Part shown: piece by piece, positions 5,635 to 6,153 of the stretch
How the letters are laid out: every line of letters starts with the position of its first letter
Position numbering within the stretch: position 1 is the first letter of the stretch
IMG/VR virus record: IMGVR_UViG_3300021142_000021
Location: 1-64,000 of that record
Reading direction: 5' to 3' (one strand)
Length of the DNA stretch: 64,000 nt
DNA from: a virus
Translations under genes and position numbers: made by a program
Notes under the pieces: model-generated
Database searches by the model: none
What the model saw: the letters and a program-made list of their open reading frames with translations, nothing else
What the model was told of the DNA's origin: nothing

Positions 5635-5663
5635 ATTATAGAGACATAATGTAGATAAAGCAA
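5635..5663 (-). promoter_or_regulatory. Sigma70-type promoter TTGCTT-N17-TATAAT
   Basis: -35 at 5663-5658, -10 at 5640-5635, 17-nt spacer, pointing to the 5527 ORF. Confidence 0.65.
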
Positions 5664-6153
5664 TATAACTGACGGAGGAGTCAGACCAAGGGTATCCAAA
5701 ACCTGGATACTGGAATACCTGACGGTTTCGCAGACTGTTATATTGAAATATTTTGTAGTGTTGGATTGATTATGTCAACTACCGCTTCTTACAGCGTTTC
5801 TGAAGGGGTCTCTAGGACTCGACGCATTGCAACCACTTATAACCAATGATTACGCATCTGGGAGGGCATACCCGTTTCACGTGCCTCCCACAAACTTAAA
5901 CTCAATCATCTTACTCACGACTCGGCCGCTTTCATATGATTTTGCCATTGCATATCCAACGGGCTTGGCTGTTGCGCCCTATTCTGAACGACACGCCGGC
6001 GAGAAATTAACTTGGCTCGCTAACCTTAACTATGATTTTCTAACGTTGATTTTTGATTTTGAAAAGATTTGGGTTTTATTGTGCTTGTGTAGTTTTGATT
6101 TATAAAACCTATACGCTGGAGTTCTTAATACGTTCACAGGGCGCGTCAGTCCT
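5661..6153 (-). ncRNA. Putative large structured non-coding RNA (~500 nt, class unassigned)
   Basis: GC-enriched intergenic region with many long-range complementary segments: 6145-6153/5814-5823, 6131-6144/5974-5990, 6072-6079/6102-6109, 5859-5865/5884-5890, 5903-5910/5845-5852, 5661-5669/5737-5745, 5692-5698/5704-5710. The G-U pairs and A-rich linkers fit the minus strand. Confidence 0.65.

Follow-up and report, generated by a model that had tools for sequence, protein, structure and literature searches.

Comparative evidence for a large structured RNA family in uncultured T4-like jumbo phages

An RNA gene downstream of the lysin gene

The DNA analysed in this study is a stretch of 64,000 nt, referred to below as the window (positions 1 to 64,000 of the IMG/VR virus record IMGVR_UViG_3300021142_000021, an 82-kb record estimated to be 21% complete). 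On its minus strand, from 6206 to 5667, the window almost certainly carries the gene for a stand-alone and highly structured non-coding RNA. An original prediction, made from the letters of the window, had proposed a large, pseudoknotted minus-strand RNA of an uncatalogued class at 5661-6153. The existence of such an RNA was borne out by covariation in 29-35 homologs, by strand-specific G-U pairs and by the lack of a conserved open reading frame (ORF), and the two proposed ends, 6153 and 5661, fall within about 6 nt of the limits of family conservation in the folded part. Rfam has no entry for the RNA family, and full-text searches, within their reach, gave no printed description of it.

The RNA is located in a gap of 715 nt (5528-6242) between the credible genes 5279-5527(-) and 6243-6815(-). 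Within the gap, only one ORF reaches 40 aa, a TTG frame of 92 aa located on the plus strand; with this frame set aside, the gap is the longest ORF-free stretch of the window, as predicted, the runner-up being 236 nt in length (4465-4700). No minus-strand ORF of at least 40 aa was present in the gap and no frame was conserved across the homologs. The predicted GC enrichment was also observed, with 46.7% in the core of the RNA (5667-6026) vs 36.3% for the window, and with values rising to 44-50% between 5700 and 5999. ARAGORN detected 0 transfer RNA (tRNA) and 0 transfer-messenger RNA (tmRNA) genes in the window; as a control, a permuted tmRNA was found elsewhere, in the related genome G002. One flank of the gap, 6243-6815(-), is the gene for a lysin of 190 aa with GH108 and PG_binding_3 domains. 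The other flank is the 82-aa ORF 5279-5527(-), beyond which lie a convergent gene for a 193-aa protein and a gene for a baseplate-hub protein similar to T4 gp26.

Homologs and distribution

A protein search with the lysin returned six viral contigs, and in 4 of the 6 the DNA downstream of the lysin gene aligned with the gap at 71-83% identity. The aligned region of these four contained no ORF, and the alignment ended at about window position 5656. Two near-invariant blocks, 5782-5763 and 5697-5680, were used as exact-pattern seeds; each matched 35 viral contigs, and a 21-letter version of the former matched 37 metagenome contigs. Thirteen of the 35 matches of block 5782-5763 were discarded (one unrelated phage lineage together with L019, the motif lying inside coding DNA), as were 8 of the 35 matches of block 5697-5680, which were due to chance: L046-L049, L055 and L057 gave no nhmmer match, and L050 and L058 matched in the motif only. 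With a profile of the core, nhmmer matched 70 of 94 loci, representing 50 distinct sequences and 44 clusters at 97% identity, the window included. Identity of the homologs to the window was 67-83%.

The RNA-bearing contigs reached 363-385 kb with terminal repeats, indicating that the carriers are jumbo phages. The family was shown to belong to uncultured T4-like jumbo phages of 360-385 kb, usually as one copy per genome; by block match, one copy was present in each of 4 phage records and 2 were present in genome G001. Nearly identical DNA is present in 18 DNA runs, judged by a share of at least 90% of the sampled words; 12 studies in total are named by 15 of these runs, all on fresh water, lakes or sediment. 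Searching 185,579 species genomes of prokaryotes (one each) with the exact motif gave nothing convincing: in the 4 matches obtained, nhmmer aligned only around the motif or not at all (L106), and L104 looks coding.

The reverse complement of the invariant block described below resembles a ribosome-binding site followed by ATG, and it is an exact translation start in the unrelated phage lineage (L041, L037 and relatives). This match was taken as chance; it does show the block to be antisense to a typical start region.

Covariation and sense strand

RNAalifold applied to 19 sequences gave 86 pairs, 40 of them with compensatory change. An explicit model was prepared from a 29-sequence alignment including the 5′ region, for which the RNAalifold structure served as the start, three weak helices were removed, and two pseudoknots were added from a column-pair scan; it has 116 pairs in 22 helices. 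The long-range RNAalifold helix 6002-5999/5731-5728 was rejected, as it is 90% paired with 0 double changes whereas the local partner 6020-6017 has two. In the model, 95.1% of the cells are paired vs 85.4% in shuffles and 34-47% when partners were slid, and the covariation score was 0.325 vs 0.148 in shuffles. Aligning the syntenic gap of relatives had been suggested with the original prediction as a check for covariation; homologs were found and aligned, and 68 of the 116 model pairs showed double changes vs 35.6 in shuffles. The shuffle comparison for the model is strong, with 0 of 500 shuffles reaching it on any of five measures, a count that is not a probability because the control ignores relatedness among the sequences. 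Insertions and deletions fall in the hairpin tips (P4a, P7 and P8a).

In the paired columns, 339 cells are G-U or U-G vs 36 that are A-C or C-A. This excess shows that the selected fold is that of a minus-strand transcript and not of duplex DNA, in agreement with the predicted sense strand.

The eight helices drawn in the original prediction were tested on the 29 homologs, and two were supported. Helix 5890-5884/5865-5859, here named P5, is 100% paired with double changes in 7 of 7 pairs; helix 6109-6102/6079-6072 is supported in its first 5 pairs, with 92% pairing and covariation in 3. The pairing of the 5′ AGGACUGAC (6153-6145) with 5823-5814 reached only 61%; its 5′ strand belongs instead to the covarying hairpin 6155-6151/6140-6136 and its 3′ strand to P6 and P7. 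The closing helix of the 3′ domain, 5745-5737/5669-5661, is 45% paired and exists only in the subgroup of the window. Four further helices are 80-83% paired because both strands are conserved, with 1-3 double-change pairs each. Among them, the 14-bp helix 6144-6131/5990-5974 owes its 82% pairing to this conservation, has pair 6140/5978 in only 5 of 29 sequences, and shares both strands with covarying local hairpins; helix 5910-5903/5852-5845 is a look-alike, arising because P4 and P6a have similar 5′ strands, and clashes with strongly covarying local hairpins. The last two are the proposed pseudoknots, 6118-6113/5797-5792 and 5964-5958/5876-5870, in which weak double changes were seen (1 and 2) and which conflict with P8a, P3 and P5. 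The RNA is thus pseudoknotted as claimed, by two pseudoknots other than those drawn.

Structure of the RNA

Family conservation spans from about 6206 to about 5667 on the minus strand (Table 1). Hairpins P1 to P8 succeed one another along the core of about 360 nt (6026-5667), and two pseudoknots lock this chain; P8 is followed by the 3′ strand of pseudoknot 2 and then by the 3′ domain. Some of the hairpins vary in length, P4a carrying insertions of 25-45 nt in relatives and P7, which is short in the window, being 20-30 nt longer in most of them. In contrast to these, P8b holds an invariant block of 22 nt (5779-5758) that was identical in 5 of the 5 phage records searched and, used as seed, led to the finding of the family.

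Table 1. Features of the RNA in window coordinates; double-change pairs are counted in the 29-sequence alignment.
Feature	Position	Strand	Observations
Conserved box just after the 3′ hairpin of the lysin gene	6190-6206	-	Family consensus CTAAAATAGTGTAACAG; conserved alignment columns 60-78
Small hairpin AACAG/CUGUU upstream of the 5′ domain	6176-6194	-	89% paired; 2/5 pairs double-change
Accessory 5′ domain, about 130 nt	6027-6160	-	Three helices and an A-rich linker
5′-domain hairpin	6155-6151/6140-6136	-	5/5 pairs double-change
5′-domain weak helix	6133-6130/6116-6113	-	1/4 pairs double-change
5′-domain hairpin with variable A/C-rich loop	6109-6105/6076-6072	-	3/5 pairs double-change
Pseudoknot 1	Hairpin 6026-6023/6016-6013; loop 6020-6017 (GCGA) with 6002-5999 (UCGC)	-	92% and 90% paired; 2 double-change pairs each
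P2	5997-5986/5979-5967	-	98.7% paired; 3 double-change pairs
P3	5964-5957/5950-5944	-	98.0% paired; 3 double-change pairs
P4	5941-5936/5909-5904	-	5/6 pairs double-change; encloses P4a
P4a, variable hairpin	5929-5925/5921-5917	-	5/5 pairs double-change
P5 hairpin	5859-5890	-	98.4% paired; 7 double-change pairs; apical part near-invariant, GUAUGUGAAAACAGGGUAUGG in most members
P6	5858-5854/5825-5821	-	4/5 pairs double-change
P6a	5853-5845/5837-5829	-	7/9 pairs double-change; pseudoknot 2 uses the apical loop 5842-5838 as its 5′ strand
P7, hairpin of variable length	5806-5820	-	Three helices with 2, 3 and 2 double-change pairs
P8, multi-branch	5802-5797/5748-5743; P8a 5796-5794/5786-5784; P8b 5782-5778/5759-5755	-	Model helices 18-21
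Pseudoknot 2	P6a loop 5842-5838 with 5742-5738	-	96.6% paired; 3/5 pairs double-change (29 sequences)
Direct repeat unit A	5719-5725	-	C-Y-G-U-C-A-N; rare substitutions mirrored in unit B
Hairpin X, GUAUCC/GGAUAC, between the repeats	5692-5710	-	Recognized by eye in the alignment; 3′ flank CCUUGG can also pair with CCAGG
Terminator-like hairpin CUGAC-UCCUCC-GUCAG	5669-5684	-	Scan match; contains repeat unit B, then U-rich tail; family conservation ends here
Direct repeat unit B	5669-5675	-	C-Y-G-U-C-A-N; inside the terminator-like hairpin; 47-53 nt downstream of unit A

Pseudoknot 2 is the best long-range contact. At least five contiguous Watson-Crick pairs were formed in 46 of 49 sequences, covering both types of the RNA (see below), and at least eight sequence versions occur, including GUUAUA/UAUAAC, CUGAA/UUCAG, GACUAAA/UUUAGUC and UGGAA/UUCCA. 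Hairpin X gave poor column counts (52%) because MAFFT shifts the region; as judged by eye, a C-G pair is replaced by U-A in six sequences and by G-C in L082, and L088 and the type-2 copies have a longer stem of 11-12 bp. The terminator-like hairpin passed an intrinsic-terminator scan in the window with a stem of only 4-5 bp, and across the family it is 95.7% paired and varies on one side only.

At the other end, the 5′ domain of about 130 nt was shown to be dispensable: unrelated sequence takes its place in the type-1 loci L026, L016 and L052, as read from the alignment, and the domain is missing in type-2 copies. The conserved box at 6190-6206 may be a promoter or the 5′ edge of the RNA; its motif is not enriched in the window and a consensus scan showed no sigma-70 site here.

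Direct repeats in the 3′ domain

Two heptamers, units A and B, flank hairpin X, and rare substitutions in one are mirrored in the other in 7 lineages. The mirrored changes were C to U at 5725/5675 (L079 and L059), GU to CC at 5723-5722/5673-5672 (L006), U to G at 5722/5672 (L074), UCA to GUG at 5722-5720/5672-5670 (L025), C to G at 5721/5671 (L096) and A to G at 5720/5670 (L068). In L068, the two mirrored changes make up half of all the rare changes in the core. Three different bases occur at position 5719/5669, yet the base there is the same in both units in 83% of 35 sequences. The repeats of type-2 copies also match by reading, the shared stretch being GUCG in L080 and UCAAAGC in L077. Spacing of the repeats is variable, being either 47-53 or 69-82 nt.

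None of the candidate explanations of the repeats gained support (see also below). A ribosome hop like that of gene 60 does not agree with a spacing that is not fixed, and neither frame nor start codon is conserved. A phage reverse transcriptase, which would also suit an RNA of the retron, defence-associated reverse transcriptase (DRT) or diversity-generating retroelement (DGR) type, was not found, the domain RVT_1 (PF00078) having matches in 0 of the 4 RNA-bearing phage records, 3 of them complete; in a control, 3 of 14 reference genomes gave matches.

Genomic setting and a second type

In type 1, to which the window belongs, the order is gp46-like gene, some intervening genes, lysin gene, RNA, convergent 193-aa gene, gp26-like hub gene and tape-measure-like gene. 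The convergent gene lies 65-123 nt past the RNA in 32 of 43 representative loci; the remaining 11 comprise 3 cut by a contig end, 7 of type 2, and L088, which has only the 82-aa ORF. The lysin gene is upstream in 29 of the 43. All copies of the RNA close a transcription unit and have a convergent gene opposite them.

Type 2 is a diverged form found in L072, L073, L085, L080, L078 and L077 and as a partial copy in L091. It keeps pseudoknot 1, P5, P6, pseudoknot 2, the invariant block and the 3′ domain, whereas the middle is different and there is no 5′ domain. Its setting is also different, with a HAD/NT5C-like gene (adjoining the clamp loader) upstream and a convergent PhoH gene downstream. 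The complete 385-kb genome G001 carries one copy of type 1 (L045, near 195 kb) and one of type 2 (L072, near 13 kb) at unrelated loci.

Among the genes beside type-2 copies, the gp44-like clamp-loader gene L085:4594-7086(-) encodes 830 aa and contains an intein with a LAGLIDADG homing endonuclease domain. Near the copy in L073 are a DnaJ-like gene with J and C-terminal domains, L073:4940-5743(+), and a gene for a PhoH-like ATPase, L073:2416-3165(-).

Other features of the locus and of related phages

Between the RNA and the convergent 193-aa gene, the window has a near-perfect hairpin of about 50 nt (5570-5623) and the 82-aa ORF (5279-5527). Among five aligned gap sequences, the hairpin is present only in the window and L006, and the ORF gave tblastn matches in L006 and L088; the two together look like a small insertion. 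Another hairpin (6188-6236) directly follows the stop codon of the lysin gene, and its sequence varies among relatives with the stem kept by covariation. On neither strand does a U tract come after it, which sets it apart from a classic terminator; it may serve in the processing or the stability of the lysin mRNA.

The ORF at window 2-3538(-) is open-ended and encodes a tape-measure-like protein of 1179 aa with long internal repeats rich in Ala, Gly and Leu, its relatives being only 26-60% identical. For the neighbouring 193-aa protein, an ESM Atlas search gave a low-confidence model (predicted local distance difference test, pLDDT, 0.36) and no usable match. The related complete phage G002 (369 kb; L110, L119-L121) has 47 distinct tRNAs and a permuted tmRNA, the tag of which is ANDSFYTEALAA; in its tRNA-Val(GAC), position 32 is occupied by an unusual G.

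Comparison with known RNA classes

At the gathering threshold, the 4227 models of Rfam 15 matched neither the 64-kb window nor any of 12 homologous loci, so the proposal of an uncatalogued class stands. At E values up to 10 over 5200-6500, 7 matches to hairpins of the microRNA or small nucleolar RNA type were obtained at 15-23 bits vs thresholds of 50-96, none inside 5661-6153; they lie on two hairpins flanking the RNA. No description of the RNA was retrieved by full-text searches, the reach of which excludes subscription journals and closed supplements. As stated in the original prediction, the region is free of tmRNA (ARAGORN) and of RNase P RNA and group I or II intron matches (Rfam); the Rfam models of tmRNA and RNase P RNA likewise had no match in the window.

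We know of no function established for GOLLD (RF01998) or ROOL (RF03087), large "ornate" RNAs that are frequent in phages or prophages. The new RNA is similar to them in being a stand-alone, richly structured phage RNA of several hundred nt that is GC-rich within an AT-rich genome. It differs from them in having no covariance-model match at the gathering level or at E up to 10, in its smaller size (core of about 360 nt), and in its carriers, which are T4-like jumbo phages from freshwater and soil habitats. Nor is it placed beside tRNAs, none being in the window and the tRNA clusters of G002 being more than 40 kb away. In a cryo-electron microscopy (cryo-EM) study, GOLLD and ROOL are reported to be homo-oligomers (PMC12286853), and by analogy an RNA-only assembly would be a reasonable guess for the new RNA.

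Group I introns (RF00028, including those of T4) resemble the RNA in size, pseudoknotted core and T4-like phage hosts. Unlike them, the RNA is intergenic and has no exon continuity, the lysin ORF having its own stop at 6243 and the next gene being separate or convergent, as is also the case in relatives. It also had no RF00028 match at E up to 10, and its helices, arranged as successive hairpins, lack the closure of the P3-P8/P7 architecture. T-box leaders, in which a purine follows the specifier codon, offer a different likeness, in that each heptamer reads as a codon (mostly GUC) followed by A, and the "codon" varies by lineage (GGC, CCC, GGU, GUG). However, no match to RF00230 was found, there are two copies of the heptamer and not one, and the next gene is convergent, so that a T-box-like element would have no downstream gene to regulate.

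The nearest cultured relatives are phages of the PA5oct group, with baseplate-hub proteins 42.6-42.7% identical. Pseudomonas phage PA5oct is a related jumbo phage with non-coding transcripts and has a 663-nt gene-free gap near its hub gene. Its four non-coding RNAs defined by RNA sequencing are placed at 8.3, 22, 103 and 246 kb (PMC7318152), away from the hub locus at 76-77 kb. The 663-nt gap gave no nhmmer match, no block within 3 mismatches, and only a sub-threshold match to the Rfam model nqrA-II.

A survey of IMG/VR, the source collection of the window, predicted 8,495 candidate structured RNAs averaging 67 nt from covariation, the same kind of evidence as used here (PMC10690425). In its main text, jumbo phage, lysin, baseplate and PhoH context have 0 occurrences each. 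Fragments of the new RNA may be among the 8,495 candidates.

Function and alternative explanations

Considered as a whole, the explanation of the observations by an RNA gene is very probably correct; a folded RNA acting in trans with two equivalent recognition sites is favoured for it, with low confidence. The RNA would act in trans as a folded molecule, be it a scaffold, a ribonucleoprotein or a ribozyme, and not as the leader of a neighbouring gene, because the neighbours differ between the types and the downstream gene is always convergent. The heptamers might, as a weaker suggestion, be two equivalent single-stranded recognition sites for one nucleic-acid partner, the second of them also closing the 3′-terminal hairpin, and this partner would not be encoded next to the RNA. 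We regard such two-site recognition in trans as unlikely. A more specific form of it has only a small chance of being correct, namely a class of phage riboregulator or ribozyme in which the two co-evolving heptamers capture two copies, or both ends, of one nucleic-acid partner. A tRNA anticodon loop could be such a partner, or else a short repeat in the RNA or DNA of phage or host; the sequence of the partner would differ between phage lineages, driving the mirrored substitutions.

Several observations weigh against an RNA gene acting in this manner. No partner of the heptamers was found by tests for complements in cis, in the intervening segment and in phage tRNAs. A co-varying complement was absent within 700 nt upstream and 500 nt downstream, pairing with the segment between the repeats was no better than that of shuffled units, and the anticodon loops of phage tRNAs, rejected as partners, fitted no better than chance. 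In three complete genomes, the tRNA-Val(GAC) loop fits 5-6 nt, ranking first in G002 and lower (second or third) in G003 and G001, and the variable heptamer base is matched by its position 32, but 1-9 tRNAs per genome reach at least 5 pairs with the heptamer. Evidence of transcription is weak: in metatranscriptome libraries only two short contigs overlap the region, one of 151 nt (covering 5663-5743) and one of 212 nt (covering 6045-6172), while a third RNA run yielded none. Both contigs are from relatives and without strand or end information, and DNA carry-over is possible. No promoter was identified in the window by consensus scan or motif enrichment, the candidate motifs ATAGATAG (6 matches vs 5.6 expected) and TAAAATAGT (47 vs 49 expected) being rejected as not enriched, and the 3′ hairpin would be a weak terminator, with the U-rich tail absent in most relatives. 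A 761-nt region had no match among 50,697 deposited phage genomes, in which a 51-nt block gave only matches of 24-33 nt at E=4; no isolated phage among them thus carries the RNA. Besides the neglect of relatedness in the 500-shuffle control, the folding score suggested with the original prediction was unfavourable, as the minimum free energy fold of 5661-6153 gave z = -1.43 on the minus strand, equalled by 7 of 100 shuffles, and z = -0.28 on the plus strand. Support for the fold is comparative, not energetic.

The place of the RNA at the end of transcription units leads to the alternative that it is a 3′ element acting in cis, a folded cap that blocks 3′ exonucleases or insulates convergent units and has no function in trans. 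Both types are at the 3′ end of a same-strand gene with a convergent gene 65-123 nt away, the RNA ends in a terminator-like hairpin, and a separate promoter was not found. However, such a cap would not need about 360 nt, two pseudoknots, a 22-nt invariant block and near-invariant loops kept at overall identities as low as 67%; moreover, the upstream gene differs by type (lysin vs HAD/NT5C-like), and a separate covarying hairpin already follows the lysin stop codon. We therefore consider a cap in cis quite unlikely. A similarly low probability, if anything lower, is given to a switch or attenuator in the 3′ domain, where units A and B would compete for one partner (UGAC at 5683-5680 or nearby), the outcome being termination at 5669 vs read-through into the antisense of the convergent gene. 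Competition for a shared partner would explain why the units stay alike; both can form 4-5 pairs with CUGAC, the UGAC/GUCA pairing is present in 26-29 of 29 sequences for either unit, and variant lineages have some complement elsewhere in the intervening segment. Against this, 0 double changes were seen in either helix, the units change in L006, L025, L074 and L096 without compensation in UGAC, and duplexes between unit and segment, at -4 to -10 kcal/mol, were no better than with shuffled units.

The size and pseudoknotted core are within the range of ribozymes, and two diverged copies at unrelated sites of one genome would suit a mobile element, T4-like phages being rich in introns and homing elements, such as the intein that L085 carries in its clamp-loader gene. 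It is nevertheless very improbable that the RNA is a ribozyme or a relic of a mobile RNA element, for example a core derived from a group I intron with the repeats as processing sites. At E up to 10, none of the Rfam models for group I or II introns, RNase P or small ribozymes matched; the RNA is intergenic, the ORFs on both sides being complete; the segment separating the repeats is present in every family member; and one RNA-library contig spans both repeats uncut. The least probable alternative, to which we attach almost no weight, is an element at the DNA level (a replication origin, a packaging site or iterons), in which proteins would bind the heptamers at a distance of about five turns of the helix. 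In agreement with it, the island is non-coding and located where transcription converges, and two identical 7-bp sites are about 50 bp apart; against it, helices dependent on the G-U pairs of a single strand (339 vs 36) are preserved by compensatory changes, and the repeat spacing of 47-53 and 69-82 nt means that there is no fixed helical phasing.

Implications for the phage family

To our knowledge, bacterial and phage RNA classes of several hundred nt with complex conserved folds are few, the examples being OLE, GOLLD, ROOL, HEARO and raiA. The RNA described here is conserved in a whole clade of T4-like phages of 360-385 kb recurring in freshwater metagenomes. A secondary structure that can be put to the test, two pseudoknots included, is now available for the family, and a 22-nt invariant block and a diverged second type have been recognized. 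The co-mutating direct repeats are an unusual signature and point to a partner still to be found. The RNA is a good target for cryo-EM or chemical probing, and it gives a reason to isolate the host of these phages.

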